Shown piece after piece: positions 21,355 through 52,060 of a stretch of DNA of 64,000 bases; position 1 is the first letter of the stretch, and the number at the start of each line of letters is the position of its first letter. Below the pieces are notes generated by a model that saw nothing but the letters and a program-made list of their open reading frames with translations, was not told the origin of the DNA and did not search any database. The position numbers and the translations under genes are program-made. This stretch comes from an uncultured Anaerolineales bacterium (lineage in GTDB: Bacteria; Chloroflexota; Anaerolineae; Anaerolineales; UBA11858): NCBI GenBank assembly GCA_964344175.1, contig CAYFMI010000002.1:6350-70349 (forward strand), in the 5' to 3' direction.

Positions 21355-24300
21355 TCAGGGCTGTATTGCAAAAACCGCCACCACCGGATCATGATCCGAC
21401 TTGCGCAAGGGTGATTCATCGCCCGGTATGGGGAGGGCATAATCGGCGTTAAGATGCAGAATCTCCACACGGCGTAACATATCCATCAACCCCGGTGTCA
21501 CCAGAATATGATCGAGCACCTGCGACTGACCCTGGTAGATGTAGGTGTAGCGCTCCTCGGCAGAAATCGCCTCAAAAACGTGTGCCAGCCCGGCCTCCCG
21601 CAAGGTGTCAATTGGCAAGGCGTCGTAATACGAGTTCAAATCGCCCATCACTGCCAGCAAGCCATCTGCATCTTCAGCCAGAATTCCCTCCATCACGGCG
21701 ACATTCCAGGCCGCCTGCGCATTGCGGCGCGGTTCGGTGGCTTCTTCGCCGCCGCTCATCGAGGTGAAGTGGTTGTTCAACACAGAGAACGTAACTGTGC
21801 CCTGACTTGTGACAACCGCGACCTGTACCTGCAACGGCGGGCGGCTGGTAATGCCCTCGGGCGCCGGGAACTGCGCCTGATGCAGAATTTCAGCCTGATC
21901 GCCGCGCACCAAATAACCCACATCAATATAGCGGCTGTCGGTGCCCTCGATCAACACGGCCTGGTAATCGTACCCGGCCAGGGCTTCGTGCGCAGCAACA
22001 TCTTCGAGGATCTCGATATTCTCAACTTCTTGCAGCCCCACCACGGTCGGTGCGCCGGCAGCGAGAATGGTGTTTGCCACTTTGGCAACATGGATGCGGT
22101 ACTCAGCAATCGCCGGCATCGAGGGGCTGGAAGGATGCGGGTCTTTGAAGTCAAACAGGTTTTCGACATTCCAGCTCATCAGGCTAAACTCATCCTCGGC
22201 CAGCGGCTCCAGCGTGGGCAATGTTCCCTCCGTGGCAAGGATAAACGGTTGTGTGACCGGCTCCACTTTGTATTGCCCAAAGGTATACGCCAACGGGCCA
22301 ATCAAGTTACTGACCTGATCGCCGCTATTAACCGCATACGCCAGGGTCGAACGGTCGTCATGAGCCGTGGTGCTGCCATCGTCTACCACAATGGCAATCC
22401 CATTGTCGGCGCCCTGCCACAAACGCGTTGCGCCATGCTCGGCTCGCACCAGCACATACTCGCCATAACGGTTGGTCGGAGCTACCGCCACCGCTGGGCC
22501 GCTGACCTGCACAAACATGCCCTCCAGCGCTTCATAATAGGCTTCGGCGGCGGCCTGCTCCACCGGCGGGTCTAGCTCAACGGGGATGGGTAATGAATTA
22601 GCGCTGCTCAACACAACAATATCGTCCGGGCTTTCGACTTGTAATTGCGTTTGCTGATAGGCCTCGCGCACCACCCCGCTCACTTGCGCCCAGTCGCCCG
22701 GCAGAACATCCACGGTCATCTCGCCGGTATGGATGTACAAGCCATCCGACGTCAGGGGATCATAGTCCTCTTCCAGGGCCTGGATCCAAAAACCTTCCAA
22801 TTCGGGGAACACGCCGGTCACCACACCGGTGGTGGTCGCCCGATCGAAGATATACGGCGAACGCGTCCCATCCCCCTGGATCGCCCAAACCGGCACGATC
22901 TCGCCCAGAAATATCAAGTGCGCCTGGCTTTCGGCAGGCTCCGGCCCATCGGCGGCGCTGACCTGTGCCTTCTCCAGACGGATGAACTCTTCGGTGGTGA
23001 CGATCTTGGCCTGATAGCTGACAGTTGCCGATTCACCCAGCCCCTCTAACGCTGGGATCATCCACACAACTGCGTCATCCTGACGGATGCCCTCGTCGGA
23101 GATACTCTCCAGCGAAAAATCGAAACGCGGTAAGGGCGCGGTAATTTGCACATCGTGAACGGCAGCCGGGGTGTAGTTGGTGACCGTCAACTGCACATCG
23201 AAGGTTGCACCCGCCTCAATTGTGTTGGGTGCATCTACGTCAATTTGCAGCACAGGCGGGTAAACTTTTGCCAGGTCGGCCTGCAGGCGCGGGTAAACGC
23301 GCTGGGTCTGATCGGTGACCTCAACAATCCCGGTGATCTGGTACGTCTCGCCGCTCTCGATGGCTTCGACGCTGATCTCGGTGAGCTTATCAACATAGAC
23401 ACTTGCCAGATAGCCGTATTCGTCTACCAGATCGATTTCGTAGCTGTACGTAAACTCCTCCACGCGGGCTACTGTTCCCTCAGCCCGGATCAGCCTTCCG
23501 GGGAGATTCTGCAAATCGGTGGCCGCATCTTCAACGCTGACCTGCAAAGGAGGCCACGCTGTCAACTCGGAGCCGCGCCCCACAACTTCTACGCCTTCGG
23601 GGGCAGGGGCCAGCTCCATTGCCCCGCGATAAACCAGCAACAGGCCGCGCACGCGCACGCGGTCGCCCAACTGCACGTTGACGTCACCTTCACCATCATC
23701 AATCCATACCTGTAAACCGCCGGTTTCATCTTCCATGTAGAACTTTGTATTACCGCTGCCCGCATAGAGGCCGCCGGTTTGCATGGTGACAATCCCTTCG
23801 ACGATGATCTCTTCATTCGCCAGCGAACGTGCCGTACCAATCGGGATCGTCCCACCGGCCACAGCCGTGCGCGCTGCGCCGCCCATCGCCAGCAAAGCGC
23901 CGTCTTGCGCAGCGACCGCATAATTGGCCGTCGTAACCGTAAGATACGTCCAGGGCGCTTTGAGCGCAATTTCGACGCTGGCGGATGCGCCTGCATCGAG
24001 CGTGTTGACCCTCCATAAAACGACCTGATGGCTCGCGGCGAGGGTACTCATATCGAAGTAGGACGCTTGTTCGGCAAGCTCAACATCGGCAGGTAGCGTG
24101 AGGATCTCAAATTCGCTGGGAACCGGCACCTGCACCACCAGGCCTTCTGCGGCAAGAGCGCCTTCGTTGCTGACGGTCAGGGTGTAGCTAAACGTCTCGC
24201 CGGGGTTGACGGTTTCGGGAAAATCGAGACGGAGGGTGAGATCACCCGACCAGGCGGCGTTCTGAGGCCCAGGCGCATCACTGAGGGTAAAGGTTCCACC

Positions 24301-24819
24301 GGTGCGCAGCAGAGCAAGGCCATTTTCCATTGCCGGCGCGGCCTCGGTGAGGCGGTAGGCTTCTGGGCCATTGCCCCAGGCCAGCGAATCCAGCACAGTG
24401 CCATCGGCGGCACGCAGCTGCAAGCCGCCGCGCTGCGGCACAAAGGGCAGCTCGATCAGGGCATCTACGGGAACGCTATACTCTTTATCGGCACGCCCCA
24501 ATAAATAGGTGCCTCCTGGAGCTATTAAGGCATGGTCCGCCCAGCGATAGGCTAATTCTTCGTCGGCGTCATCGGAAAGTTGATACCACAACGCCGCTCC
24601 CTTAAGATCGAATGGCGCTTCCAAAGAAGGGTTGGTCAACTCGATAAATTCGTAATTATTGTCTCCTGGCATTCCGGCCAAGACCTCGCCGATCAACACC
24701 GGTGAGGTGAGGGCAATGTTACTTTCTGTTGATGTTACAGCAGGTGCGACCTCGCCCGAATTGCAGGCGGTTAACAGCAATACGACAAAAAGGATTCCGA
24801 TAACAGTTAGTTTTCGCAT
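21355..24819 (-). CDS. ExeM/NucH-type extracellular nuclease lipoprotein (lamin-tail domain + repeat domains + endonuclease/exonuclease/phosphatase domain)
   Basis: Lipobox LLLTACNS. LTD-like IGEVLAGMPGDNNYEFIELTNPS. DUF11/CARDB-like TLTVSNEG repeats. C-terminal EEP motifs SWNVENLFD, GLQEVEN, NNHFTS, GDLNS and SDHDPVVAVF. Confidence 0.8.
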   Translation of the reverse strand: MRKLTVIGILFVVLLLTACNSGEVAPAVTSTESNIALTSPVLIGEVLAGMPGDNNYEFIELTNPSLEAPFDLKGAALWYQLSDDADEELAYRWADHALIAPGGTYLLGRADKEYSVPVDALIELPFVPQRGGLQLRAADGTVLDSLAWGNGPEAYRLTEAAPAMENGLALLRTGGTFTLSDAPGPQNAAWSGDLTLRLDFPETVNPGETFSYTLTVSNEGALAAEGLVVQVPVPSEFEILTLPADVELAEQASYFDMSTLAASHQVVLWRVNTLDAGASASVEIALKAPWTYLTVTTANYAVAAQDGALLAMGGAARTAVAGGTIPIGTARSLANEEIIVEGIVTMQTGGLYAGSGNTKFYMEDETGGLQVWIDDGEGDVNVQLGDRVRVRGLLLVYRGAMELAPAPEGVEVVGRGSELTAWPPLQVSVEDAATDLQNLPGRLIRAEGTVARVEEFTYSYEIDLVDEYGYLASVYVDKLTEISVEAIESGETYQITGIVEVTDQTQRVYPRLQADLAKVYPPVLQIDVDAPNTIEAGATFDVQLTVTNYTPAAVHDVQITAPLPRFDFSLESISDEGIRQDDAVVWMIPALEGLGESATVSYQAKIVTTEEFIRLEKAQVSAADGPEPAESQAHLIFLGEIVPVWAIQGDGTRSPYIFDRATTTGVVTGVFPELEGFWIQALEEDYDPLTSDGLYIHTGEMTVDVLPGDWAQVSGVVREAYQQTQLQVESPDDIVVLSSANSLPIPVELDPPVEQAAAEAYYEALEGMFVQVSGPAVAVAPTNRYGEYVLVRAEHGATRLWQGADNGIAIVVDDGSTTAHDDRSTLAYAVNSGDQVSNLIGPLAYTFGQYKVEPVTQPFILATEGTLPTLEPLAEDEFSLMSWNVENLFDFKDPHPSSPSMPAIAEYRIHVAKVANTILAAGAPTVVGLQEVENIEILEDVAAHEALAGYDYQAVLIEGTDSRYIDVGYLVRGDQAEILHQAQFPAPEGITSRPPLQVQVAVVTSQGTVTFSVLNNHFTSMSGGEEATEPRRNAQAAWNVAVMEGILAEDADGLLAVMGDLNSYYDALPIDTLREAGLAHVFEAISAEERYTYIYQGQSQVLDHILVTPGLMDMLRRVEILHLNADYALPIPGDESPLRKSDHDPVVAVFAIQP

Positions 24820-25823: not shown

Positions 25824-26043
25824 GGGGTGGATTTTACCACCGTCGGGGAAATCACCTTGCGCGCAAATTGATTCAAGATCCGCTTTCGCGATTCGGATAA
25901 ATTTCATCCAGAATATTGTCATATCGCTTCAATGATGCCTGACACTGGACTACTGGATGAAGTACTGGCATACTTTTTATACGCTGCGACCTTGTCAAGG
26001 AAAAACCAGCGAGATACGAGAGCAAATTATTGGAGGCAGAGAA

Positions 26044-26268
26044 ATGGCGGTAAAAACCTGGGAAGTCGAGAAAGTTCATCATTGCCACCATGTTGGCAAA
26101 GAAGTCGGTTTAGAAGCTGAGGTCGTCTACCCAGCTGAGTGGTTGCCCGATCAACCGCCGCGCATCATCGGCCACCGTTGCAGTGAGGGCGTTTCGTGCA
26201 ATTTGGATGGGCGCGCAAGCTGTATGTGGGCCGGAACAAACCCAACCTACGACCCGTTTCGCGAGTAA
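26044..26268 (+). CDS. Small Cys/His-rich hypothetical protein (74 aa)
   Basis: GGAGG lies 8 nt before ATG 26044. Sequence HHCHH ... HRCSEGVSCNLDGRASC suggests metal binding. Followed by a strong hairpin. Confidence 0.45.
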   Translation: MAVKTWEVEKVHHCHHVGKEVGLEAEVVYPAEWLPDQPPRIIGHRCSEGVSCNLDGRASCMWAGTNPTYDPFRE

Positions 26269-26289: not shown

Positions 26290-26337
26290 CCAAAAAGGGA
26301 TGCAGGTGCGGCGCGCCGCACCTGCATCCCTTTTTGG
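26290..26337. terminator. Perfect 48-nt palindrome with A5/T5 runs
   Basis: CCAAAAAGGGATGCAGGTGCGGCG|CGCCGCACCTGCATCCCTTTTTGG. Confidence 0.7.
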
Positions 26338-26357: not shown

Positions 26358-26606
26358 GTGAATAATGACCAGCACATCTGGAAAACGTGGGCAAATAGCC
26401 TCCACCGCTGGGGGTTAGACCATGTGGTCGTAACCATTCTAGAAGCAACCGCGCCACTCCACTGGCTGGGTGCGCAGGTCATTCATGTTGGGCAGCCGTT
26501 GTTCAGTCAGGTTGCGCCGGAAAATCACGTTCTTGCATTAACAAAAATTCTCGAAAATCCTGACAAATCTCAGGCATTTATGGCCTTTCTACGGCAAAAC
26601 GCGTAA
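26358..26606 (+). CDS. Hypothetical small protein (82 aa, GTG start), possible first gene of the 26.3-34.3 kb operon
   Basis: This is the 3' part of ORF 26196..26606. The upstream part runs through the palindrome and is not credible. No motif recognised. Confidence 0.3.
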   Translation: MNNDQHIWKTWANSLHRWGLDHVVVTILEATAPLHWLGAQVIHVGQPLFSQVAPENHVLALTKILENPDKSQAFMAFLRQNA

Positions 26607-26641: not shown

Positions 26642-27424
26642 GTGACCTTTGCTGGTCTCATCGGCCTGGTTTTCATTCTGGCTTTTTTTGGACTAATCAT
26701 CCTCTTCAGCGTTGCCCGCCGTGACGGGGCAGGTGCAAAGCTGCGCCCCATCGCAGCGTTCATAAAATTACGGCGCGCCATTGGCCTGGCTGTTGAAGCA
26801 GGGTCGCGGCTGCACATCAGCATTGGGCGCGGCAACCTTACGGGGACCGAAAGCGCGGCTGCATTTGCCGGTTTAAGCGCCCTGAAAGGCATGATCCACT
26901 CGGCCTCCTCGGGCGACAATCCCCCCGTCGCCACCACCGGCGACGCGTCCCTCTCTATCCTTACCCGCGACACCATCAGCGGCACTTACCGCGAAATTGG
27001 CATTAGCGAACAGTATCACCCCAATAGCGGTCAGCTAACCGGCATGACGCCCTTCTCATATGCTGCGGGGACATTGCCGCTCGTTGAAGATCCCAAAACA
27101 ACGACACATATTTTATTGGGGCATTTTGGCAACGAAGTCGCGCTAATAAGCGATGCCGGTCAGCGCAGCGGCGACCTTACCCTGGCGGGAACCGACAACC
27201 TGCCCGCCCAAGCCATCCTGTATGCCACCGCTCAAGAGCCGCTGATTGGCGAAGAAGTTTACGCCAGCGGGGCCTATATTCAGGAAAACGCCATGCACAT
27301 TGCCAGCCTACGCGCTCAAGATGTCATCCGTTGGCTGTTGGCAGCCATTATTCTCGGAGGAATTGCGCTAAAATTCGCCGGATTAGATAACCTCTTCAAT
27401 AGCCTGTTGGAGGGGCTGCTGTGA
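26642..27424 (+). CDS. Membrane protein with N- and C-terminal TM segments, unknown function
   Basis: GTG start with GGAGG 9 nt upstream. N-terminal TM FAGLIGLVFILAFFGLIILF, a domain of about 200 aa, then C-terminal TM WLLAAIILGGIAL. Confidence 0.65.
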   Translation: MTFAGLIGLVFILAFFGLIILFSVARRDGAGAKLRPIAAFIKLRRAIGLAVEAGSRLHISIGRGNLTGTESAAAFAGLSALKGMIHSASSGDNPPVATTGDASLSILTRDTISGTYREIGISEQYHPNSGQLTGMTPFSYAAGTLPLVEDPKTTTHILLGHFGNEVALISDAGQRSGDLTLAGTDNLPAQAILYATAQEPLIGEEVYASGAYIQENAMHIASLRAQDVIRWLLAAIILGGIALKFAGLDNLFNSLLEGLL

Positions 27425-28086
27425 ATCTCAAGTTGAAATCGCCTGTCTCCACGGCCATGGCTATCGGCGTTGGGTTGGTCGTTCTGCTGGGCTATTTCTT
27501 CGGCAGCGATGCCGCCGGCAGCCTAACTCCGTTGGGCATACTGCGCAACTATTTCTTACAAGGGGCCATCATCTGGGCCGCGGTGGCATTGATCGTTGGC
27601 ATTGCTAATCTGGCATCGGTTCACTTAAACTACATTCGCCAAAACACAGGCGGGGGGTATAGCTTCATTCTACTGCTCGCTCTCATTGTCACCATCGGTG
27701 TGGGCCTTTACGACATCTTGCAAACGCATTTCAATCAGGAACTTAACTTCCAGCGTATGCGCTGGGTTTTCGACTACATCCAACTGCCCATCGAAACCAG
27801 CCTGATGGCCGTCCTGGCCATCAGCCTGACCTATGCCGCCGCCCGCCTGCTGGCCCGCAGGCTTAATTTGCTCTCGGTGGTCTTTGTGGGCGTAGTGCTG
27901 TTATTGTTGGTTGGCGCAGCTCCACAAATTGCCGCCCAGGCTCCCCTGCTGGCCGACATCCGCAATTGGATCTTGCAAGTTCCCACCCTGGCCGGGGCAC
28001 GCGGCATTTTGCTGGGCGTTGCGCTGGGGACTATCGCCACCGGCATTCGTATTCTGACCGGCAGCGACCGGCCGTATGGGGGTTAG
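27421..28086 (+). CDS. Polytopic membrane protein, unknown function
   Basis: GTGA start/stop overlap with the preceding gene. About six hydrophobic segments. Confidence 0.65.
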   Translation: MNLKLKSPVSTAMAIGVGLVVLLGYFFGSDAAGSLTPLGILRNYFLQGAIIWAAVALIVGIANLASVHLNYIRQNTGGGYSFILLLALIVTIGVGLYDILQTHFNQELNFQRMRWVFDYIQLPIETSLMAVLAISLTYAAARLLARRLNLLSVVFVGVVLLLLVGAAPQIAAQAPLLADIRNWILQVPTLAGARGILLGVALGTIATGIRILTGSDRPYGG

Positions 28087-28089
28087 CCA

Positions 28090-30213
28090 ATGAGCGAAAT
28101 CCGTTGCCCCATGTGCGGGAAAGATAATCCCAAAACTTTAGACCACTGCCAACACTGTCAGGCTCGTCTGACTCCGTTGATTATGTCGCCGGAGGATGAT
28201 AACGGTCTGCCCGACTGGATGCAGGATACCGGCGATGAGGCTGCGCATCAAGAACCCCAGACATCTCCTGAAGAATCAGATCCCGCAGATTGGCTGAACC
28301 AACTCAGAGGGGAGGAGGCTGCTGACCCCTTTGAGGCCATTCCCCCCGAGGATGAGCCAGCCCCTGGCCCCGAACCCGAGGACGATTGGCTGGGGCGACT
28401 CAGCGCCCTTAGCAGTGAGGTTAGCGCGCCCGATGAGGAGGGTGATGCGCCCGAAGATACCTGGCTGGATGGCGAAATCCCAGAGTGGATGAAACTTGAA
28501 GAGCAGGACGAACCCTTTAGCGAGGAACCCGCTGCAACCGCAGAAGATGCTCTGCCCGACTGGCTTGCCGAACCCGCTGCCTCGCCGGAAGAATCGCCCC
28601 CCCCGGCGGAAGAAGGTTTACCTGACTGGTTCCTTGACACCGCCGATGCGGCCCCCTCGGAGGCTGCCCCCTCCCCCGAGGCTCCGGCTCTCAGCCCCGA
28701 GGGCGATAGCGAACTGCCTGCCTGGATGTCTGAAACTCCTGACGCCGAAGATGACGGCATCCCCGATTGGATATCCGGCGTCGAGGATGATGATGTTGAA
28801 ATCCCCATCATCTTGCCGGATCCTCAGCCAGAGATCCCCGACTGGAGCGCCAACCTGGAAGACGACGCCCCAGCAAGCAGCCCTTCAGACGAAGAACCCG
28901 ATTGGCTAGAAAAACTGGGGGCCGGAGAACCCGGTGATTTCACCCCCCAGGGCGAGGAACTCCCAGCGGCCTTACTGGATGACGATGCGTTTAAGCTTGA
29001 CGAATTAACCGACCTTTTCGCCCGCGATACCGAGGATGCCCCGCCCGAACCTGGAGAAATCGACGACAGCCTGGCTCCTGCGGAACTGCCCGGCTGGTTG
29101 GAGGCCATGCGCCCGGTCGAAAGCACATCCGAAGATCAAACCAGCCCGGCAGATCAAGGGCCAACCATCCAAACTGGGCCTCTGGCAGGGTTAAGCGGCG
29201 TACTCATGGCCGAGCCAGAAATCGCCCGCCTGAAAAAAGCGCCCACCTTCTCATCAAAACTCAATGTCTCAGCCACCCAGCAGCAGCATGTCAAACTATT
29301 GCGCGATTTGATCGCGTCGGAAGGCGTGCCCCTTCAAAGAACAGAGCCAATTCTCGTGTCTTCACAAGGATTGTTAAGGTGGATTATTGCCTTCTTATTG
29401 ATCTTGGCAGTGGGATTAGCCGTTATTACAGAAGGGCAGTTTGTCCCCTTGCCTGCGTTAGAATCGGTTCCTCCGCAGGTGATGGGGGCCAGTCAATTAA
29501 TCGAAACTTTGGCCCCGCAAGATCCCGTCTTATTAGCTTTCGACTATGAACCCGGAACCGCAGGCGAGATGAGCGCCGCTGCGGCTGCGGTTGTCGATCA
29601 TATCATGCTCAAGGGTGCTTATCTTACGCTGGTATCCACCTCCCCTACCGGTCCAGCGTTGGCCGAGAATTTCTTCCGCACAACCCAATGGGCGCATAAC
29701 TACACCAGCGGAATCCAATATATTAATTTAGGCTATATCCCCGGCGGCGCATCGGGGCTATTGGGTTTCGCGCAGATTCCACAGCGCATTACGCCCCTGG
29801 CTTTCGACGGCCTGGAAGCCTGGAAAACGATGCCCCTCAGCCGCATATCCACGCTCTCTGACTTCGAGATGGTTGTTATCATCACCGATAACCCAGATAT
29901 TGCCCGCACCTGGATCGAGCAAGTGCAGCCCGCCTTGCCCAGCACCCCAATGATCGCCGTTGCCAGCGCCCAAGCCGAGCCTATCCTGCGCCCTTATAGC
30001 GGCGGCCAAGATCCGCAACTGGATGGCCTGGTGGGGGGGATTACCGGCGGTGCAGCCTATGAACAAGTGACCGGCAAAACACATTTAGCCCGTCAATATT
30101 GGGACGCTCTCAACTATGGGCTGCTGACCGCCGCAGCCGCAATCCTGATCGGCGGATTGGTTAACCTGGTTTCTATTTTCCTTACAAAATCAGGCAAAGG
30201 GGAGGCCTCATGA
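28090..30213 (+). CDS. Zn-ribbon protein with an acidic PDW-repeat region, a TM segment, an ~230-aa domain and a terminal TM segment
   Basis: N-terminal CPMCGKDNPKTLDHCQHCQARL. Twelve [LIE]P[DEAG]W[LMFIS]-type motifs lie between aa 40 and 337 in a Glu/Asp/Pro-rich region. TM segments at about aa 428-446 and aa 680-700. Confidence 0.8.
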   Translation: MSEIRCPMCGKDNPKTLDHCQHCQARLTPLIMSPEDDNGLPDWMQDTGDEAAHQEPQTSPEESDPADWLNQLRGEEAADPFEAIPPEDEPAPGPEPEDDWLGRLSALSSEVSAPDEEGDAPEDTWLDGEIPEWMKLEEQDEPFSEEPAATAEDALPDWLAEPAASPEESPPPAEEGLPDWFLDTADAAPSEAAPSPEAPALSPEGDSELPAWMSETPDAEDDGIPDWISGVEDDDVEIPIILPDPQPEIPDWSANLEDDAPASSPSDEEPDWLEKLGAGEPGDFTPQGEELPAALLDDDAFKLDELTDLFARDTEDAPPEPGEIDDSLAPAELPGWLEAMRPVESTSEDQTSPADQGPTIQTGPLAGLSGVLMAEPEIARLKKAPTFSSKLNVSATQQQHVKLLRDLIASEGVPLQRTEPILVSSQGLLRWIIAFLLILAVGLAVITEGQFVPLPALESVPPQVMGASQLIETLAPQDPVLLAFDYEPGTAGEMSAAAAAVVDHIMLKGAYLTLVSTSPTGPALAENFFRTTQWAHNYTSGIQYINLGYIPGGASGLLGFAQIPQRITPLAFDGLEAWKTMPLSRISTLSDFEMVVIITDNPDIARTWIEQVQPALPSTPMIAVASAQAEPILRPYSGGQDPQLDGLVGGITGGAAYEQVTGKTHLARQYWDALNYGLLTAAAAILIGGLVNLVSIFLTKSGKGEAS

Positions 30214-30887
30214 ATATCGACGCGTTGACTCTGGCCGACCTGAGCGGAACTCTGCTGGGATTTGTGTTAACTTTGTTTATTCTCAGTTATGTGATGGGCG
30301 ATAATGCCCTCTTCCGGCTGGCGACGCACATATTCGTCGGGGTGGCGGCTGGTTATGCAACCATCGTCACCCTGTACAATGTCATTTTGCCGCATATGGT
30401 TTTCCCTATTTTAGACGGCGGAAAAAGCGACACGTTCCTGGCGGTTAGTTTCCTTATTCCCAGTCTGTTAATTTTAGCCAAGTTATCGCCCCGCTTGAGC
30501 AAGCTGGGCAACCCTGCCGTGGCGATCTTGGTAGGCATTGGCGCAGCGGCAGCCATCGGCGGTGCGGTAACCGGAACATTGTTCCCGCAAACATCCGCCG
30601 CGATTGGCATATTCGAAACCAACAATTTTGTAGATGGTGTCGTGATAGTCATCGGCACACTGAGTACACTACTATTTTTCCAATTTTCAACCCCCAAAGA
30701 CACCCAACGCGCCAGGCTGATGCCGCAAGTGATGCGCGTCTTGCGCTGGGTGGGCAAAGTTTTTGTTGCGATTACTTTTGGGGCGCTATTTACCGGCGTG
30801 TACATTGCCGCGCTGACAGCGTTGATCGAGCGCTTCACCTACCTGTGGAATATCTTCAAAGAGCTGGTTCTTCCGGCCCTGATGTAA
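30210..30887 (+). CDS. Polytopic membrane protein, unknown function
   Basis: ATGA overlap with the preceding gene. 225 aa with 6-7 hydrophobic segments. Confidence 0.65.
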   Translation: MNIDALTLADLSGTLLGFVLTLFILSYVMGDNALFRLATHIFVGVAAGYATIVTLYNVILPHMVFPILDGGKSDTFLAVSFLIPSLLILAKLSPRLSKLGNPAVAILVGIGAAAAIGGAVTGTLFPQTSAAIGIFETNNFVDGVVIVIGTLSTLLFFQFSTPKDTQRARLMPQVMRVLRWVGKVFVAITFGALFTGVYIAALTALIERFTYLWNIFKELVLPALM

Positions 30888-30894
30888 TAACTCT

Positions 30895-32649
30895 ATGATG
30901 TCTTCTATCGTTGTCACCGATACAATTCTCACGATCGATGTGGGCACCATCAACACCCGCGCCGCTTTGTTCGATGTGGTTGGCGCGCAGTATCGCTTCA
31001 TTGCTTCCAGCACTGCGCCCACGACCATCGCCCCGCCCTTTAATGATGTCCGCGAAGGTGTGGTGCGCGCCGTCAGTGAGTTGCAGACCCTCACCGGGCG
31101 AGTGCTTGTGGGCACCGATGGCACCTTGCTCATCCCCAGCCATCCCGATGGCTCTGGGGTAGACGCTGTTGCCGCGACGCTTTCAGCCGGGCCAGACATC
31201 AGAGTTGTTGCGGTTGGGCTGCTTGAAGATATCTCGCTAGAAAGCGCCCGCAATTTAGCCACTACCACCTATGCAGCCGTCACCGAGACACTCAGCATCA
31301 ATGATCGCCACAAACAAGATGCCCGCATCGACACCATTTTGCGCGCCCGCCCCGACCTCATCATCATTGCCGGTGGCATCGATAACGGGGCAACCCAATC
31401 TGTTTTCAACCTGCTTGAAGCAGTAGGGCTGGCTTGCTTTTTGATGCCGCGCTCCCAGCGGCCACAGATCCTCTTCGCCGGAAACAGCCAGATTCGCGAA
31501 ACGATTAAAGAGACTATCGCTCCGATCACCGATGTGCACATCGCGCCCAATGTGCGTCCCGTTATCCACAGCGAAGAACTGGCCCCGGCTCAGGTTCAAC
31601 TCGCCAAGATCTTTAAAAATATTCGCGCCCAACAAATGTTTGGGGTCTCCGACCTCGACCAATGGAGCGAAGGCCGCCTCATGCCCTCATCGACAGGGTT
31701 TGGGCGTATAACACGTTTCCTCAGCCAGATTTACGATCCATCCAAAGGCGTATTGGGCGTCGATGTGGGTGCATCATCCACAACGATTGCTTGCGCGCTG
31801 CAAGGACAATTGGCTTTACGCGTTTTTCCGCAACTCGGCCTGGGAACAAAACTCAACAATCTCACTCACTATATCCCCCTGGAATTGATCACCCGCTGGC
31901 TCTCCGAAGAAATTCCTGACGCAACGGTTCGAGACTATTTGCAAAACAAAGCGGTCTATCCGGCAAGCTTACCGATCACGCCCGAAGAACTGGACATCGA
32001 GCAAGCCATCACCCGCCAAATTTTGCGCACGGCCGTACACAGTACTATCTCGGCGCTGCCCTTCGAACTGAGAAGCGCCGGGGATGCGTTCCTGCCCTGG
32101 CTGGAGCCGATCCTGGCATCGGGCGGGGCGCTTAGCCTGGCTCCCACCCCTGGGCAAAGCCTGTTGATGCTGCTGGACGGGTTGCAGCCGGTCGGTGTTA
32201 CAACCATTGTCTTAGACCAAAATAACCTCCTGGCTCCGCTGGGCGCTGCAGCGGAAATCAACCCGTTAATGGTCGTGCAAACGCTCGAATCACACGCCTT
32301 TCTCAATCTAGGAACAATCATTGCTCCGGTAGGCAGATCGCGGCAGGGATCGACTGTTTTACGCGTACGGGCGACCTTTGAAGATGGTAGCGATACGAAG
32401 TTCGATGTGAAGTACGGTTCCATCGAGATCATACCGCTCCCGGCGGGGCAGTCTGCACAATTACATTTGCAGCCGTTGCACCGCTTCGATATCGGCATGG
32501 GCGCCCCTGGCCGCAGTGGGCGCGTGCGCGTGGTAGGCGGCGCGTTGGGCATCATCATCGATGCGCGCGGCCGCCCCCTTAACTTGCCTCAGGACCCCGG
32601 CCGACGCCGCGAAATCATCAAACGCTGGCTTTGGGCACTGGGCAATTAA
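30895..32649 (+). CDS. Actin-fold (ASKHA) ATPase-like protein, GlmL(MutL)/EutA-like
   Basis: Motifs ILTIDVGTINTRAALFD (phosphate-1-like), IIIAGGIDNGATQ, a second lobe VLGVDVGASSTTIACA, and ILASGGALSLAP. 584 aa. Confidence 0.6.
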   Translation: MMSSIVVTDTILTIDVGTINTRAALFDVVGAQYRFIASSTAPTTIAPPFNDVREGVVRAVSELQTLTGRVLVGTDGTLLIPSHPDGSGVDAVAATLSAGPDIRVVAVGLLEDISLESARNLATTTYAAVTETLSINDRHKQDARIDTILRARPDLIIIAGGIDNGATQSVFNLLEAVGLACFLMPRSQRPQILFAGNSQIRETIKETIAPITDVHIAPNVRPVIHSEELAPAQVQLAKIFKNIRAQQMFGVSDLDQWSEGRLMPSSTGFGRITRFLSQIYDPSKGVLGVDVGASSTTIACALQGQLALRVFPQLGLGTKLNNLTHYIPLELITRWLSEEIPDATVRDYLQNKAVYPASLPITPEELDIEQAITRQILRTAVHSTISALPFELRSAGDAFLPWLEPILASGGALSLAPTPGQSLLMLLDGLQPVGVTTIVLDQNNLLAPLGAAAEINPLMVVQTLESHAFLNLGTIIAPVGRSRQGSTVLRVRATFEDGSDTKFDVKYGSIEIIPLPAGQSAQLHLQPLHRFDIGMGAPGRSGRVRVVGGALGIIIDARGRPLNLPQDPGRRREIIKRWLWALGN

Positions 32650-32684: not shown

Positions 32685-33743
32685 ATGTTAGCGCCTGTCA
32701 TCCAAATCAACTCGATCACCAAGATTCGCCGCCACCGCGAACTTCCCATCCCCGGAAACGTTATCGTCCGGCAAGGGCAGAAAGTTGAAGCGCGCGACAT
32801 TATCGCTGAGACCATCTTAGCCCCTGAACACATCTTGCTCAATATCGCTCGCAGCCTGAATGTTTCGACCGAACGGGCCGATGATCTCATCCAACACACC
32901 GCTGGCGAAGCTGTCAACCAAGACGACCTCATCGCCGGGCCGGTGGGCCTCACCCAACGAGTAGTACGGGCGCCGCGCCCCGGGAAAATTGTCGTCGCCG
33001 GCGACGGCCTGGTACTCATGGAAGTCAGCAGTACACCCCATGAAATCCGCGCCGGAATGCCGGGAACGATCACCGATTTGATCCCCGATCGCGGCGCAGT
33101 CATTCAATGCACCGGCGCGCTGGTGCAGGGCGTCTGGGGAAACGGCCTCACCGAATTTGGCGTGATGCAATCGAAAATCAAATCCCCCGACGATCAACTC
33201 GTCAGTGAAGATCTGGATGTCAGCCTGCGCGGCGCAATCATCCTGGGCGGGCACTGCGCTGATGCGCATGTTTTCCAGAAAGCTGCCGAGATTCCCTTGC
33301 GGGGCCTGATTCTGGCTAGTATGTCTTCCGCGCTCATTCCCAGAGCGCTTAAGGCTCACTTCCCTGTACTTGTTTTAGAGGGATTTGGCTACCACCCTTT
33401 GAACGCAATAGGCTATAATGTACTCACAACCAACAACGGCAGGGAAATTTCGCTCAATGCGGAACCGTTCGACCATTACAAGGGGATTCGCCCCGAGGTC
33501 GTCATCCCGCTAGATGTAGCCCGAGAGCCAGAGGACATTAGCCTCTCGGTAGAAGACTTCGCACCCGGCCAAAAAGTCCGCATTGTACGCAACCCGCACG
33601 CTGGCGCGACGGGCACAATTGTAGCCCTATCGCAAGGACCCATGCGCTTTCCAAATGGCATCCGGGCACGTGGCGCAGAGATTGAAATGGCCGAGGACCA
33701 GCAAATACCTATCCCCCTGGTCAACCTGGAGCGAGTAGTCTAG
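32685..33743 (+). CDS. Hypothetical soluble protein with barrel-sandwich-like N-terminus and KOW/SH3-like C-terminus
   Basis: Start set to ATG 32685. Motifs GNVIVRQGQKVEARDIIAE and GQKVRIVRNPHAGATGTIVAL. No TM segment. Confidence 0.55.
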   Translation: MLAPVIQINSITKIRRHRELPIPGNVIVRQGQKVEARDIIAETILAPEHILLNIARSLNVSTERADDLIQHTAGEAVNQDDLIAGPVGLTQRVVRAPRPGKIVVAGDGLVLMEVSSTPHEIRAGMPGTITDLIPDRGAVIQCTGALVQGVWGNGLTEFGVMQSKIKSPDDQLVSEDLDVSLRGAIILGGHCADAHVFQKAAEIPLRGLILASMSSALIPRALKAHFPVLVLEGFGYHPLNAIGYNVLTTNNGREISLNAEPFDHYKGIRPEVVIPLDVAREPEDISLSVEDFAPGQKVRIVRNPHAGATGTIVALSQGPMRFPNGIRARGAEIEMAEDQQIPIPLVNLERVV

Positions 33744-33793: not shown

Positions 33794-34333
33794 ATGACAA
33801 TGATGGATGATTTTGATTTTGATGATATCGAAATGGAAGAAGGCCCTCCCCCCGAGGAAGCTAGCAATCGCACTTTTTTGTTGGTGGCCGGTATTCTCGG
33901 AGCGATTCTAATCTTGTCATTGATCCTCATGGCGGTCTATGCTATGGTTGTCGTTCCCCAACGGCGTGCCGCGCAAAACACGCAGGTAGCCTTAGCCAGC
34001 GGCCTGACAGCCGAAGCCCAGTCGTGGACAGCTACCCCGACCATCACCCGCACTCCCTTGCCAATGACGGCCACGCCCAGCCCCACACTGGTTCTCGCCC
34101 CTACCGACACGCCTGCCGCGGGTCTGGCGCAAGACCGCAACGATCAGCTTACGGCTACAATGGCAGCCTTGTTCACCCAGCAGGCGGCTAACCTGCTCAC
34201 CGTAACCCCGCTGGCCACCGAGTTACCCAGCACGGGCTTCGCCGATGATATCGGGTTACCGGGCATGCTCTCATTGGCTGGTGCGTTAATACTCATTATT
34301 TTCTTTGCCAGGCGCTTGCGAACGGCGCGCTAG
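33794..34333 (+). CDS. Small Thr/Pro-rich protein with C-terminal LPXTG sorting signal
   Basis: GAGGAG SD. LPSTG (nt 34223..34237), then hydrophobic MLSLAGALILIIFFA, then RRLRTAR. The N-terminus is strongly acidic and precedes a single TM segment. Confidence 0.7.
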   Translation: MTMMDDFDFDDIEMEEGPPPEEASNRTFLLVAGILGAILILSLILMAVYAMVVVPQRRAAQNTQVALASGLTAEAQSWTATPTITRTPLPMTATPSPTLVLAPTDTPAAGLAQDRNDQLTATMAALFTQQAANLLTVTPLATELPSTGFADDIGLPGMLSLAGALILIIFFARRLRTAR

Positions 34334-34354: not shown

Positions 34355-34386
34355 AAAAAAGGTCTGAGTGACACTCAGACCTTTTT
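34355..34386. terminator. Bidirectional intrinsic terminator between convergent genes
   Basis: AAAAAA-GGTCTGAGTG-A-CACTCAGACC-TTTTT, between the stops at 34333 (+) and 34391 (-). Confidence 0.8.
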
Positions 34387-43410: not shown

Positions 43411-46400
43411 TCACTCAGAAATCTCGAAGATCGCCCCGGCGCTGGTGCCCTGCACTTCGGGGAAGTAGAACTGCCAGGCATGGGCCGGAAGGACGCGGTA
43501 GGCGCCCGGCTGGTTGAGTACCAGGATGTAAGTTAGTTCGTAGGTTCCAGCGGGCAGGTAGTTCACTGCCCAGGCAATATGGTCATCGTAAATTTGGGGG
43601 TTGTTGAAATACCACCAGCCCCACCCGGAGCCGAAGGGGTCGTCGATAGCGTAGTCGGGCAGTCCTTGCTGGCTGGTTTTCAGGTTGGCGTTATAGATCT
43701 CTGCTCCAGCGGGGATGTAGTCTTCGACGGCCAGATAGTAGATTTCGGTTTCCAGCGTAAGGGTCAGGCGCACTTCCAGGGTGTTGCCTGCTGCAGCGCT
43801 GAGGATGGATTCGGCCTGCTCGTCGCCTAGCACGGTATAGGCTCGTGCCACGCTGATGCCGGCATCCAGCGGCTCAACAGCCTCAACCGGGCGGAGTACA
43901 TTCAGGTGGGCAGTGTAATACAACCGCCCCGGCCCATCTTCCCGCTGAATAGTGAGAGCATTGGGGTAGTCGGGGTAGAGATGGGCAACAGCCTGGGATG
44001 TGTTGACGGCGCTGAGTCGGGCGTCGCCCCCGGCCTGCCCTTCTGCCAGCACCGTGCCGTTGATCTCTGCCGAAAAGCCGAAGTCCCCGGCCAACTCGCC
44101 GGTGCCTTTCATGGCTTCGGTTAGCGCCATCAGCGTCCAGGCGGTTTCGTAAGTCGAGGCCCAGGCGCCGCGCGCATCGCGGTGAGTCATCAGGTAGCGC
44201 ACGGCTTCGGGCAGGGTGGCCGAGGCCGGGTCTTCTTGCGCCAGGGCGAAGATCACTACCGCGCTGTTGAAGACAGCCGTTTCCATGTTGCGGGTCGAGC
44301 TGCGGCCTTCCCAATGGGTTCCGGTTGCCGTGCGGATGGCGGTGGATTCCAGATCGGAGATCAGATTGGCAATGCGCTCATCGCCGGGGCGCAGCGTTTC
44401 GAGGCTTAATGCCAGTAGCGCCTGCGCCCAGGGGCTGAGCTGGTCGCGTACTTCATATAAACGCTCAATATTAGAAAGCAACGCGCCGCCTCCAAGTATC
44501 GGCTTGCCGACGATGCCACCCACCGCGCCGCGTGGCTTGAGGGCTTGCGACTGGGCAAAATAGACGAAGGCCATGCGGTCGAGCAGCCACTCATCGGTCA
44601 CCATTTCAAGCGCTGGTGTAGCCGCCGAGAGATAACCCATAGCCTCTTCGATCACCGATGCTTTGACAAAGACCCCGGCATCTTCGGCGCGGCTGAGACC
44701 ATAGAGCACATAGGCGGTCATGTAGGTGTCGCTTTCATTCCCCGACCACCAGCCCCAGCCCCCATCGGAGTTTTGGGTGCTGACCAGGCGCGTCAGGCCG
44801 TCTTCGAGGGTGCGTTCCAGGCGGGCTTGTAAGTCGGGCGCATCCAGCCCCAGGCTTTGAATGGCGCGGTACGCCTCCAGGTTGGGCAAGAAGCGCGAGA
44901 CGGTTTGCTCGGTGCATTCGAAGGGGTAATGTTCGAGTACTTCTAAACCGGTGGTCATGGCGGCGGCCAGCGAGGGAGATAATTCAATCTCCAAGCCTCC
45001 CGCGCCAGGGTCGTAGGCGCGCGGCAGGCTGACCAATTCCAGGCGTTGGCCGCCATCATCGAGGATGCCCGCCGTGCCAAAAGTCTGCGGGGCATTGTAG
45101 CGCACCACCGGCAGATCACCCCAAACCGGTTTGGTAATATCCTCATAGAGTACGTCCCCCTGATCGTTCTGTCCGGAGGCCGAGAAAATCATGGCGACTT
45201 GCTCCACCTCCTCGACCGTGCCCCACCACATTACCTGGGTGTGTCCGCCTGCCGGAATAGCCACCTGCTGCAAGCTGCCGTTGGGATCATCCAGCGTGAA
45301 GCCCGCCGCTTGCAGGGCAATATCTACCTGTAAATCGACGGCGCTGTTGTTGTGTACAATTGCCGCAATGCGAAGATGGTCGTCAACCACCACGAAGCGC
45401 GGCGTCACCGGGCGCACCAGCAACTCTTTGCTGGTGACAATGTGGGTTTCGGCCTGGCCCACAAGCATGGTTTGGGTCAGGCCGCGCACATCAAAATGCC
45501 AGGTGGTCAGGCTGTCGGGCAGGGCAAAGGTGGCCTGGGCCTGTCCATTAGCGTCGGTGACGATTTCGGCGTTCCAATAGGCCGTGTCGGGAAAGTCTTC
45601 GCGCACGAAGGGGGGCAGGAAATCCCCGCCGCCTCCGCCGCCCATCCCGCCGGGGGAGTAGACCTGCCGCTGAACATGCCGCGTCAACCCCATGCTGGTG
45701 CTGACGCCCAGCGGTTGCTCGCGATAATAAAAGTCAAAAATCTCGCGCGAGTTGGGATCAGCCAGCGCCAGGGCGGCCAGATCGGCAACGGCCAGCGAGA
45801 ACTCGCCCACAACCGGCTGCCCGTCGGCATCGGTGACGCGCAGGTCGAAGGTCACCTCCTGGCGCGGCTCGAGATGCGCCGGGCAGGTCATCGAATCTTC
45901 GCAGCTGACCACTTCCCCGGCGTGCATGGCAAGGACTTCGAGATTGAGTTCGAAGGCCGCCGGTGAGACCGGCAGGTCAACATACCCCTGGCGGAAATCG
46001 AGCCAGCCGGAGTCGTTCTCTCCGATCAACGATACCGAGACGAAGACATTGGGGGCGTCCTCCTCACCAAGCGGAATCGATACAGTAACCCCGGCTTCAT
46101 CCAGGTCGAGGCGGTAGTAGCGCGAAACGAAACTGCGCTCAACGGTCACCAGGGCTTGCGTGCCGCTGCCAAAGGGGTTGGGGATGAAAATCTCGGCGGT
46201 GTCACCGGGCAGGTAGTCTTCGCGGTCGGCGGTGATTTGCAAACGCTGGTTGGGCATATTCGGCCACACCGCCTGCCCCTGCCCGCCAACCCACACGAGC
46301 ACCTGCGTAAGCGCGCCCTCATCCCCGCTCACTTCCAACTGGTAGGTTCCCGAATCGGGCGGGATGAAAGCCAAACGCGCCACGCCATCGGAACCGGTGC

Positions 46401-49392: not shown

Positions 49393-49541
49393 GGGATTCT
49401 CTCCTGAGAGAGGCAAATGGATAGATGGCACTACCCAGGTTTCAGCGTGGATACTTCCATTATACCCGTGGATTTTTAATACCCACAAAATAAATGATGT
49501 GTGCTTGCGAGCGAAGCTAGTACTCGGTTAGATAGATTATT

Positions 49542-49669: not shown

Positions 49670-52060
49670 TTAGGGCGTCAGCGCTTTGGTGAGCAGCCCA
49701 GTGCCGATGGCTTCGGCCAACGTGAGATCTTTGGTTTCAAGCACGACAACGACTGCCAGCGATTTGCCTTCCGCACCGGGCAGGGTTCCCCCCAGGTACC
49801 AGGTCAGGCTCTCGCCCTGCGGGACAAAGGCAATCTGCCAGAATTGGGCTTCTATCTCGACAAAGTTACTGGCCTCGGCCAGGGTGGCGTATTGGTGTGC
49901 CGCGCCCAGGGCGGGGAGTAAAACCCAGCCATCTTCCGGATGCTGATAGGCCTGGGCGATCTTGGGGACGGGCTGCAAGCCGTCGTTGCTCAGGGCGGCG
50001 GTCAGCAGGGCGATGCTGATTGGGCTGGTGGAATCTTCGCTCAATGGAGTATCATCACCGGGCAGGCGCAGGGGCACAAAGTTCAGCCAGGAGGCAGGCA
50101 ATCGCTCCGGAAACAGAATCGCCCCCAGGCCGCGCGCCGAGTAGCGCCCCTGGGTGGCGCGATTGAGCAGCGGGGCGCGTTCATCTTCGATCAGCGTATC
50201 CCAAATTTCATCTAACCGATTGGGGTCATAGGTCGGGTGCGAAGCCAACGCCAGAATTTCGCCGTTTTGAGCATTAAGTACAATAATTGTGCCAGCCTGT
50301 TCACCCAGCAGTTCATCAGCAGCATTCTGCAGGCTGAGATCGAGAGTCAGGCGGATATTGAGACCGGGGGGCGGCGTGCCATAGAGCAGGTGATGCCACC
50401 ACACGGTGAAGGGATCATTGCCCTGTTGGCCGCGCAAATAGGGGTCAAGTGTGGCTTCGAGACCGGCCTGCCCATAGATGGGATGATTGTAACCCAGCAG
50501 GGGGCCGAGCTGGGGAGTGTGCGTGAGGCGGGTATACGCCCCAGGCTGACCATCGGTTTCGACCAGGGGAGTGTTGTTCCGGTCGAGCAGGGCGCCGCGC
50601 GGCACACTCAAGTCGGCGATGGCGCGGCGGGGGTTATCGGTACGCGTGAGCAAAGCCGGGCCGCGGTAGAAACTCCACCAACCGTTGACGAGGGCGGTCG
50701 CGGCGAGAGCAGCGATGAGCAGCATTGAAAGTTGCAGGTTGGCGGTTGCAGGTTGGGCGCCCGCCGTCAGTTGTCGGTCATCGGCTTTCCCGCTGATATG
50801 CAATAAGATGAGTATGGCTAAAAACGATGTCAGCAGCGACGACCCTCCGTAGGACATGAAGGGCAGGGTCACGCCGGTGAGGGGCAGCAGGCGCAGGTTG
50901 CCACCAACAATCAGGATGCTCTGGGCAATCATGTGGGCGGTTAGCCCGGCAGCCAGGTAGCGCCAAAAAGGGTCTGATGCCGCGATGGAAATTCGCAAGC
51001 CGCGCAGCGCCAGCAGAGCAAGCAGCGCCAGCAAGCCCAATGTGCCGACCAGCCCGGTCTCCTCGGCAATGGCGGCGAAGACAAAGTCGGAATGTGCGAT
51101 GGGAACAACGCCGGGACTGCCCATGCCGGGGCCGCGCCCGAAGATGCCCCCATTGGCAATGGCCATGATCGATTGCACGATCTGATAAGAGCGCCCGCTG
51201 GGGTCTAGCCAGGGGTTGAGCCAGGCATCCACGCGCAGACGTACCACGTCGAAGAGCAGGTAACCCGCCACACCCGCCACACTCAGCCCTACGGCGCTGA
51301 TGACCGGAATCCAGCGCCAGCCGGTGGCCAGGAAGATCATTACCGAATAGATGAAGATGAACAGCGAGGCCGTGCCGAGGTCGCGTTGCACCAAAAGTAA
51401 GAGCAACGCGAGGCCGGTCATAATGAGCGTTGGCGTTAGCACGTTGAAAGGTTTGAAGGTTTGAGAGTTGGCCGGTTGAATGTTAATACGTACCAACGTG
51501 CCAACGCGCCAACGATCCGCCAGATACGCGGCGAGATAGACGATCAGCAAAAGTTTAAGGGGTTCTGAGGGTTGCAGATAAACGCCGCAGCAGCCCAGCC
51601 ACAAACGCGGGCCGTAACCCAGGGGGTTGGTGCCGAAGATCAGAGTCAGGGCGGTGAGCAGCAGGCCACTGGTCAGCCAGATGTATTTGTAGCGCCGTAG
51701 GGTGTCGAGCAGAGCTTGCAGGCGCAGGCCGAAAATGAGCGCGCCGAGGGCGACCCCCAGCCAAATGGTCTGACGCAGACCGTAGGTAGAAGTCAACCGC
51801 CAGATGGTCAGCAGGCCCCATCCGCTCAATAGGGCAATGATGGGCAGCAACAGGGGATCGCTGTTGGGTAGGTAGCGGGATGCCCCGCGCAGGGCCAGGG
51901 CGAAGCCGACCAGCCAGACGGCGTATCCGAGCCAATGCCCGAAACGATAGTCTGCATCCCAGGAGCGGGCGCGGGCTGCCGGAGAGAGAGTCAATGCCAG
52001 GGCGTAGAACGCCATAAACAGGGCTGCCAGCACAAAAAGGCGACGTTGAGTTTTGCGCAT
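49670..52060 (-). CDS. SEDS (FtsW/RodA-type) glycosyltransferase fused to a class-B-PBP-like domain lacking the catalytic motifs
   Basis: aa 1-~440 are SEDS-like: QPSEPLKLLL, SDFVFAAIAEETGLVG, LPLTGVTLPFMSYGGSSLL. The C-terminal ~330 aa have PBP dimerisation/transpeptidase hallmarks (AGTIIVLNAQNGEILALASHPTYDPN, LLNRATQGRY). No SxxK, SxN or K[TS]G is visible. Confidence 0.8.
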   Translation of the reverse strand: MRKTQRRLFVLAALFMAFYALALTLSPAARARSWDADYRFGHWLGYAVWLVGFALALRGASRYLPNSDPLLLPIIALLSGWGLLTIWRLTSTYGLRQTIWLGVALGALIFGLRLQALLDTLRRYKYIWLTSGLLLTALTLIFGTNPLGYGPRLWLGCCGVYLQPSEPLKLLLIVYLAAYLADRWRVGTLVRINIQPANSQTFKPFNVLTPTLIMTGLALLLLLVQRDLGTASLFIFIYSVMIFLATGWRWIPVISAVGLSVAGVAGYLLFDVVRLRVDAWLNPWLDPSGRSYQIVQSIMAIANGGIFGRGPGMGSPGVVPIAHSDFVFAAIAEETGLVGTLGLLALLALLALRGLRISIAASDPFWRYLAAGLTAHMIAQSILIVGGNLRLLPLTGVTLPFMSYGGSSLLTSFLAILILLHISGKADDRQLTAGAQPATANLQLSMLLIAALAATALVNGWWSFYRGPALLTRTDNPRRAIADLSVPRGALLDRNNTPLVETDGQPGAYTRLTHTPQLGPLLGYNHPIYGQAGLEATLDPYLRGQQGNDPFTVWWHHLLYGTPPPGLNIRLTLDLSLQNAADELLGEQAGTIIVLNAQNGEILALASHPTYDPNRLDEIWDTLIEDERAPLLNRATQGRYSARGLGAILFPERLPASWLNFVPLRLPGDDTPLSEDSTSPISIALLTAALSNDGLQPVPKIAQAYQHPEDGWVLLPALGAAHQYATLAEASNFVEIEAQFWQIAFVPQGESLTWYLGGTLPGAEGKSLAVVVVLETKDLTLAEAIGTGLLTKALTP

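Follow-up and report, generated by a model that had tools for sequence, protein, structure and literature searches.

Arrays of short linear motifs in disordered protein regions organise endocytosis, peroxisomal import, RNA silencing and actin nucleation in eukaryotes; to our knowledge, few comparable motif arrays have been documented in bacteria. Here we analyze a protein with such an array, named ZnPDW, which is encoded at nt 28090..30213 (+ strand, ATG start, 707 aa) of a 64,000-nt stretch of DNA (the window) from an uncultured Anaerolineales bacterium of the Chloroflexota (GenBank assembly GCA_964344175.1, contig CAYFMI010000002.1, positions 6,350 to 70,349). ZnPDW is composed of a Zn ribbon, an acidic disordered region, a transmembrane (TM) helix, an ecto-domain and a second TM helix, and its gene lies in an eight-gene operon that also encodes a soluble actin-fold (ASKHA) protein resembling MutL/GlmL (30895..32649, +; Pfam PF13941) and a putative membrane-to-wall tether, p179. 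Searches of Pfam, NCBIfam, PDB sequences, Foldseek and the literature returned no homologous characterised protein. The nearest precedents are alike by mechanism only, and the logo of the ZnPDW motif, [ED]-[LIV]-P-[DE]-W-L-x-x-[LM]-R (404 Trp contexts from homologues), lacks the sequence features that define them.

The W-x-x-x-[FY] array of PEX5 resembles the predicted structure of ZnPDW in that a long disordered region is dotted with Trp motifs that fold as short amphipathic helices; docking to a membrane complex through many sites would be a further likeness, and PEX5 carries a tetratricopeptide repeat (TPR) domain in the same polypeptide, as does a second Anaerolineae family described below. 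However, there is no homology between the two, PEX5 is eukaryotic whereas ZnPDW is bacterial, and no PEX14-like domain was identified here. Moreover, the motif found here, Φ-P-D-W-L-x-x-L (Φ, hydrophobic), has Leu or Met at position +4 and not Phe or Tyr: in the 404 contexts this position is occupied by L (36%), M (14%), E (9%), I (7%) and T (6%), with Phe/Tyr not among the top residues. The W-acidic motifs of kinesin-1 and the endocytic DPW/DPF/NPF motifs share with ZnPDW a Trp in acidic context, a disordered region and more than one copy for avidity, and W-acidic motifs are read by a TPR domain. On the other hand, the core is P-D-W-L here instead of L/M-x-W-D/E or D-P-W, and the readers of those motifs (AP2 appendage, EH and KLC TPR) are eukaryotic. 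An earlier reading made from the sequence alone (the sequence-only reading) had likened the array to the DPW/NPF-type arrays of endocytic adaptors; this likeness stands as a conceptual one, but neither a D-P-[FW] nor an N-P-F core is present, and the P-D-W-L core, placed where a helix begins, is nearer in style to PEX5 WxxxF, kinesin W-acidic or FtsZ C-terminal peptides.

The C-terminal peptide of FtsZ ([DE]-[IL]-P-x-F-[LM]-[RK], as in D-I-P-x-F-L-R) follows a disordered linker and is similar in sequence style. It docks on actin-fold FtsA, ZipA and SepF, and the binding of this peptide to an ASKHA-fold ATPase is paralleled here by the ASKHA-fold gene two genes downstream of ZnPDW. In contrast to the 3-30 internal copies in a membrane protein found here, the FtsZ peptide is present in single copy at the C-terminus of a tubulin fold and has Phe in place of Trp; ftsZ was not found in the window or in about 90 loci. 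The WH2 arrays of Spire, Cobl and VopL/VopF consist of tandem short helical motifs with spacers of ~20-30 aa in a disordered chain and act on an actin-fold protein, while the ZnPDW arrays have a spacing mode of 24-28 aa and an adjoining actin-fold ATPase gene. No LKKT-type element is present here and the link is purely analogical; we know of no MutL/GlmL-like protein that polymerises. Finally, haloarchaeal CdpC, which ties FtsZ1 to the membrane, combines a Zn ribbon with a long disordered linker, but the analogy with ZnPDW is architectural and not one of homology, since CdpC binds the membrane by an amphipathic helix, relies on another Zn ribbon for binding and lacks a Trp motif array (bioRxiv 10.64898/2026.07.16.738847).

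New in the present system are a class-wide motif in two families, the location of one carrier in an invariant operon, and the co-variation of the array with an LPxTG-like tether. The Trp motif is sharply defined and occurs in 3-30 copies in two unrelated families, in hundreds of species of an abundant, little-studied class. It provides a peptide bait for the reader and Trp-to-Ala alleles for function, and the joint presence or absence of array and p179 is a natural contrast for assigning the function of the operon. The system also lets one ask if bacteria use avidity-based motif scaffolds as eukaryotes do.

The Trp motif array of ZnPDW and its orthologues

The array comprises 12 Φ-P-D-W-Φ motifs in the acidic disordered region and was confirmed at nt 28207..29100 (+), with Trp at aa 43, 68, 100, 125, 133, 158, 180, 212, 227, 252, 272 and 336. 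These are the only Trp residues within aa 36-345, and each of them sits in the pentapeptide attributed to it by the sequence-only reading (general form [LIE]-P-[DE]-W-[LMFI]), which had also described the region correctly as acidic and Pro-rich (96 D+E against 7 K+R, 15.5% Pro). Eleven of the 12 Trp are followed by a hydrophobic residue (L/I/V/M/F) at +1, and eight have in addition P at -2. The means for these two features in 200,000 composition-preserving shuffles were 1.9 and 0.3, respectively, and the observed values were reached in 0/200,000 shuffles in either case. The motif pattern in ZnPDW is far beyond composition. Examples of motif peptides are AEDALPDWLAEPAA and APAELPGWLEAMRPVE.

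The gaps between successive Trp in ZnPDW are irregular (8-64 aa, as first described), although 4 of the 11 are exactly 25 aa long, and TRF found no DNA-level tandem repeat in the array region. In an AlphaFold model built on an alignment of 40 family members, the predicted local distance difference test score (pLDDT) was below 50 over most of aa 32-390, and the sole secondary structure in this region consisted of short helices starting at or beside a Trp (aa 42-45, 67-73, 101-107, 132-135, 179-182, 271-277 and 335-339). A folded tandem-repeat domain was rejected because the spacing is irregular, the TRF search was empty and pLDDT is low in most of the region. The proposal that ZnPDW carries a multivalent array of linear motifs in a disordered region, and not a folded repeat, is in agreement with this prediction and with the conservation of motifs and drift of spacers among orthologues (below), which were among the checks suggested with it. 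No further open reading frame (ORF) with such a motif array was found in the other 62 kb of the window, and no other ORF with at least three P[DE]W[LIVMF] motifs in 1.6 Mb of DNA flanking ZnPDW genes, indicating that the array is specific to ZnPDW genes.

The C-terminal half of ZnPDW matched 152 relatives, all unnamed proteins of Chloroflexi/Anaerolineales with the same motif in their N-terminal regions. In a census of one genome per species (GTDB), at least 407 species had a relative of ZnPDW, and nearly all of these genomes carried the label Anaerolineae, Anaerolineales or Chloroflexota; a further genome scan was queried with alignment A5. In the motif logo, E/D at -4 precedes L/I/V at -3 (58%), P at -2 (75%) and D/E at -1 (72%), and the Trp is followed by L at +1 (73%), L/M at +4 (50%) and R at +5 (27%). 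The disordered region of 71 complete orthologues (species representatives) is 179-719 aa long and contains 3-24 Trp (median 12), and the 12 Trp of the window protein are typical of the family. In these orthologues 72% of the Trp of the disordered region fit P-x-W-Φ, the number of Trp correlates with the length of the region (r = 0.77), and Trp density is 2.6 per 100 aa. The highest Trp count, 30, was found in locus L142.

Compared with eleven close orthologues, the motif positions of ZnPDW are 56-71% identical and the folded C-terminal region 56-67%, against 32-45% for the spacers. As judged from these alignments, the motif is selected and not compositional, and the array behaves as an array of short linear motifs: the motif is kept, the spacers diverge, and copy number and position vary. 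Gaps between successive Trp across orthologues have their broad mode at the 24-28 aa given above, with only 3.8% shorter than 15 aa. In locus L138 (8228..8662) the array contains a 78-nt unit in 5.5 copies of 84% identity. Sequence comparison indicates that arrays grow by tandem duplication of motif-plus-spacer units of ~26 aa, and the array of the window is old enough that only its motifs stay recognisable. The units produced by the recent tandem duplication in L138 are SMDWLSGLTDDTS, a Ser-Met variant of the motif.

The last motif of ZnPDW lies in a positionally conserved box, L-P-x-W-L-E-A-M-R-P (aa 333-342; 29086..29115, +; alignment A1), whose consensus across the family is LxPAELPxWLEAMRP and which is absent from array-less variants. 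No other copy in the family is as well conserved, and this one may represent the founder motif. In L001 (8556..11251), and also in L113, L115, L125 and L131, ZnPDW is split into two overlapping ORFs within the acidic region; such splits, seen in several metagenome-assembled genomes (MAGs), could reflect either true pseudogenisation or frameshifts introduced when low-complexity DNA was assembled. Loci L093 and L122 belong to one MAG bin (JAGDMX01, CTSoil_045) with two operon copies, one encoding an array-less Zn protein and the other a protein with 3 motifs, and represent either two paralogous systems or a mixed bin.

The array is preceded by a C4 zinc ribbon (aa 1-30; 28090..28179, +), recognised by Cys conservation and in the AlphaFold model and predicted to be cytoplasmic. 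Its knuckles are C6-P-M-C9 and C20-Q-H-C23, the CPxC...CxxC pattern noticed by the sequence-only reading; the four Cys are invariant in alignment A5, and the model shows two CxxC knuckles with beta strands within aa 4-26 at pLDDT 85-95, as in zinc ribbons. Scores of the ribbon were below the Pfam gathering thresholds (DUF7577, 18.5 bits against 28; Zn_ribbon_3, 16.5 against 27). Downstream of the array, a conserved, probably cytoplasmic juxtamembrane region (29176..29316, +) with a G-P-L-A-G-L-x-G-V-L box (aa 363-372) and a helix (aa 395-409) leads to TM helix 1 (aa 425-447; 29362..29430, +; AlphaFold and TM scan), predicted to be N-in. It is followed by an alpha/beta, Rossmann-like domain (~aa 450-665; 29431..30084, +; pLDDT >90) and by a long C-terminal helix that includes TM helix 2 (aa 666-702; 30085..30195, +) and ends in a short basic tail. 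A hydropathy scan placed TM segments at aa 428-446 and ~673-697, thus finding both the internal and the terminal TM segment expected from the first description. K/R residues are found before TM helix 1 and none after it, K/R residues also follow TM helix 2, and the N-terminus is a signal-less Zn ribbon; this arrangement argues for a cytoplasmic disordered region and an extracytoplasmic alpha/beta domain. The latter matched no Pfam or NCBIfam model and had no PDB relative by sequence profile, and a Foldseek search with the ZnPDW model gave generic Rossmann-like matches only (best E 3.6e-3, TM-score <=0.36 by either normalisation). Single-sequence and profile searches of PDB sequences returned nothing significant for ZnPDW, the MutL-like protein or p352, the product of the gene that follows it.

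A second carrier family and the putative p179 tether

When the disordered region alone was used as HMMER query, 21 of the 22 proteins found belonged to the ZnPDW family, and the remaining one, P0156, was a TPR protein in which the PDWL motif occurs ten times. A search with the N-terminal region of ZnPDW returned family members only, while a synthetic query of concatenated motifs returned 3 proteins, one of which (P0137) has a TPR-like C-terminus like that of P0156. Relatives of the TPR domain were present in 149 species genomes of the same class as ZnPDW. The 62 complete ORFs of this TPR family have a median length of 1012 aa and a median of 21 Trp, with up to 31 copies of the motif, and share a layout in which ~750 aa of disordered sequence is enclosed by an N-terminal TPR region (~250 aa) and a C-terminal one, with Pfam TPR matches at both ends. 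Their logo, nearly identical to that of ZnPDW, has D/E at -4, P at -2 (59%), D/E at -1 (61%), W, L at +1 (59%) and L at +4 (34%). The proteins are soluble and have no TM segment. Both carrier families occur in the same genomes, and one 3.2-Mb contig holds both (L082, L177). Housekeeping genes are conserved beside the TPR-family gene and offer no hint to the reader of the motif, and we found no published description of the family. TPR-family loci are L162-L241 (for example L225 5992..9273 and L165 6001..9378), and the proteins carry an additional repeat, AVAWLESLAAKHGAKPEEL. In an unrelated small protein of 202 aa, P0136, the sequence P-[SP]-W-L-S-[DE]-L-[TA] recurs every ~13 aa without acidic spacers; a similar Trp-Leu helix may be put to another use there.

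The protein that co-varies with the array, p179 (33794..34333, +), consists of an acidic tail, a TM helix, a Pro/Thr-rich linker, an LP-x-[TAS]-G motif, a hydrophobic stretch and an RRLRT tail. Its N-terminus is an acidic, Phe-containing tail of ~27 aa (DDFDFDD...PPPEE-SNRTF) followed by the TM helix, which is atypical of a signal peptide. The C-terminus, LPSTG followed by 18 hydrophobic residues and RRLRTAR, has the layout of an LPXTG sorting signal, and the pattern LP-x-[TAS]-G-F-x-D...RRLR was kept in 23 p179 orthologues. If a signal of LPXTG type is processed, p179 would bridge the membrane and the cell wall.

Co-occurrence was counted in 111 distinct loci with enough downstream sequence, an array being defined by at least three strict motifs. 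Array and p179 were found together in 102 loci, the array without p179 in none and neither of them in 5; in the other 4 loci p179 was accompanied by 3-6 Trp motifs of less canonical form. In the array-less loci L094/L097 and L089 the gene after p352 begins at once or lies on the opposite strand, leaving no room for p179, which indicates that p179 is truly absent and not merely too diverged. The five array-less loci form two clades, L089/L092/L113 and L094/L097, which are not sisters in a tree of the MutL-like protein; the L094/L097 clade is nested among array-rich lineages. The two non-sister clades thus imply at least two independent joint transitions of array and p179, and the pattern is suggestive of a functional coupling between them.

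A proposed docking array for a shared reader

We consider it rather likely that ZnPDW is a core, N-in bitopic subunit of a lineage-specific envelope complex of Anaerolineae, with a cytoplasmic multivalent docking array for a shared reader. The disordered acidic tether would hold the Zn ribbon ~400 residues from the membrane. Within each motif, Pro-Asp probably caps an amphipathic helix of one to two turns with Trp, Leu and Leu/Met on one face, and each copy could then dock one cytoplasmic reader domain independently of the others. At the membrane complex, the tether would then gather the reader in many copies or, if the reader is itself multivalent, bind a single one with high avidity.

We infer that the motif binds a protein. 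The same code is carried by two unrelated cytoplasmic scaffolds, which argues for a shared reader and not for a purely operon-internal contact; one reader would then serve both families. The gap mode of 24-28 aa would leave room for a globular reader at each site independently. On the other side, the array would couple the cytoplasmic part of the complex (the MutL-like ATPase and p352) to the membrane-to-wall tether: the co-occurrence data suggest that the array belongs to a sub-module joining the cytoplasmic face of the complex to wall-anchored p179, and we infer a link of this kind from them.

As candidate readers we rank the TPR domain of the second family first, the basic C-terminal domain of the MutL-like ATPase second and p352 third; the MutL-like ATPase and p352 had been suggested as partners by the sequence-only reading. 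TPRs are peptide readers, and the TPR of kinesin light chain reads W-acidic motifs. The partner candidate with the strongest conservation is p352 (32685..33743, +), a soluble protein of 352 aa without family match; its single-sequence AlphaFold model had a mean pLDDT of 32.

Several observations weigh against a docking array coupled to p179. The co-occurrence of array and p179 amounts to two independent transitions only. The cytoplasmic tail of p179 is itself acidic, so that direct binding between it and the array is not obvious. Some members of the ZnPDW family have the Zn ribbon without an array (P0101, P0109, P0112), indicating that the array is an accessory module rather than the core function. 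Array-less lineages keep the C-terminal extension of the MutL-like protein, and the residues that change in these lineages give a weak signal for this protein (2 residues changed only in the array-less clades against 1.0 expected) and at most a weak hint for p352, in which A65, G106 and R253, otherwise conserved, are changed in both array-less clades (3 against 0.8 expected).

A broader form of the docking array is possible but doubtful. In it, Φ-P-D-W-L-x-x-L would be a class-wide docking code read both on the TPR scaffold and on a wall-tied trans-envelope machine, together forming a cytoskeleton-like scaffold under the membrane. The reader would possibly be the second family's TPR domain or the actin-fold MutL-like ATPase, the machine of the membrane scaffold would be covalently tied to the cell wall via p179, and the multivalent scaffold would be functionally comparable to PEX5/PEX14 docking or to WH2-actin nucleation. 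If true, the filamentous Anaerolineae would have a cytoskeleton-like system of their own.

The motifs could also act without a dedicated reader, as weak mutual Trp/Leu stickers in an acidic spacer; joined by the arrays of the TPR family and by a cationic partner, they would give rise to a condensate or a gel-like layer beneath the membrane. Co-assembly of this kind would be permitted by the identity of the motif in the two families, and highly variable copy number, predicted disorder and arrays as long as 30 copies (ZnPDW) or 31 (TPR family) are all consistent with it. However, the region has an extreme net charge (96 acidic against 7 basic in 310 residues), which disfavours homotypic association, a generic aromatic sticker would be less specific than the motif (P at -2 75%, D/E at -1 72%, L at +1 73%, L/M at +4), and Trp is not interchanged with Phe or Tyr. 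We regard this sticker-and-spacer scaffold as improbable.

That the W-L-x-x-L mini-helices dip into the cytoplasmic leaflet of the membrane, pinning the tether or sensing curvature or lipids, appears more improbable still. Trp favours membrane interfaces, the motifs are predicted to be short amphipathic helices and ZnPDW is anchored in the membrane, all of which would suit such a role; on the other hand, the strongly acidic flanks would be repelled by anionic bacterial lipids, each helix offers only about three hydrophobic residues, and the soluble TPR protein, which has no TM segment, uses the motif in equal or greater number. A neutral by-product, in which the region is an entropic spacer between Zn ribbon and membrane and the motif a relic of a duplicated founder unit, has very little probability left and is largely refuted by the comparative data: although arrays arise through tandem duplication and are missing from some orthologues, the DNA repeat is gone from the window while 12/12 Trp contexts are kept, motif positions are conserved like a folded domain as the spacers diverge, an unrelated family retains the same logo, and Trp, the rarest and costliest residue, is maintained at 2.6 per 100 aa with 72% in one context.

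The operon and its surroundings

The operon is tightly packed, co-directional and bounded by hairpins. Its upstream boundary is a perfect 20-bp hairpin with a T-rich tail, terminator-like (26290..26337, +), and it ends at a second terminator-like hairpin of 14 bp with T runs on both sides (34356..34386, +), which is common to the operon end and a convergent phosphoglucomutase gene. The upstream hairpin, located between ORF 25957..26268 and the operon start, is GC-rich and unusually long for a simple terminator; ORF 25957..26268 encodes a small Cys/His-rich protein of 103 aa without Pfam match.

The first operon gene (26358..26606, +; ~82 aa) is small and conserved, and its GTG start is a prediction. 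It is 38% identical (E 7e-25) to an 82-aa gene at the same position of L002, and genes of 82-89 aa are called at this position in L001, L002 and L089. It is followed by a DUF6754 membrane protein with TM helices at both ends (26642..27424, +; Pfam PF20539, E 7e-28), whose gene was found in 74 of 83 loci; in the others the contig ends before reaching it. Two polytopic membrane proteins without family match flank ZnPDW: memB (27421..28086, +), with ~5-6 TM helices, and memD (30210..30887, +), with ~6, the start of memD overlapping the stop of ZnPDW (ATGA). The gene order DUF6754-memB-ZnPDW-memD-MutL-p352-p179 was found in 74-83 of the 83 loci, all gaps being at contig ends. The surroundings are alike in distant genomes and include PFOR, DHO dehydrogenase, phosphoglucomutase and cNMP-binding protein genes. 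A defence or mobile-element role of the operon was rejected on account of this shared housekeeping context, and the operon is a vertically inherited core system. Literature searches on DUF6754, on PDWL/LPDWL and on an actin-like protein with a zinc ribbon in Anaerolineae found no description of it, nor did any of the searches return a functional annotation for the operon.

The MutL-like protein matched PF13941 with an E of 2.4e-64 (218 bits; cut-off 27). It was rejected as a true GlmL equivalog, since it scored 87 bits against the NCBIfam cut-off of 475 and its neighbours in the 83 loci are membrane proteins and never mutase subunits. Outside the Pfam model it has a conserved, basic C-terminal extension of ~115 aa (aa 470-584), with an isoelectric point (pI) of 11.5 in the window protein and a median of 10.7 over 125 orthologues. 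The extension ends in DARGRPLxLPxDPxRRRExxKKWxWxLG, and its pI falls to 6.8-8.2 in the array-less L094/L097 clade.

Three ORFs on the opposite strand of the window were also noted. ORF 49670..52060 (-) encodes a protein of 796 aa in which a full FtsW/RodA/SpoVE domain (E 2.7e-72) is joined to a short match to a transpeptidase domain, and which may be a SEDS-PBP fusion. An envelope protein of 1154 aa with lamin-tail, DUF11 and endonuclease/exonuclease/phosphatase domains is encoded at 21355..24819 (-), and a bacterial alpha-2-macroglobulin of 2025 aa, also a large envelope protein, at 43411..49488 (-).

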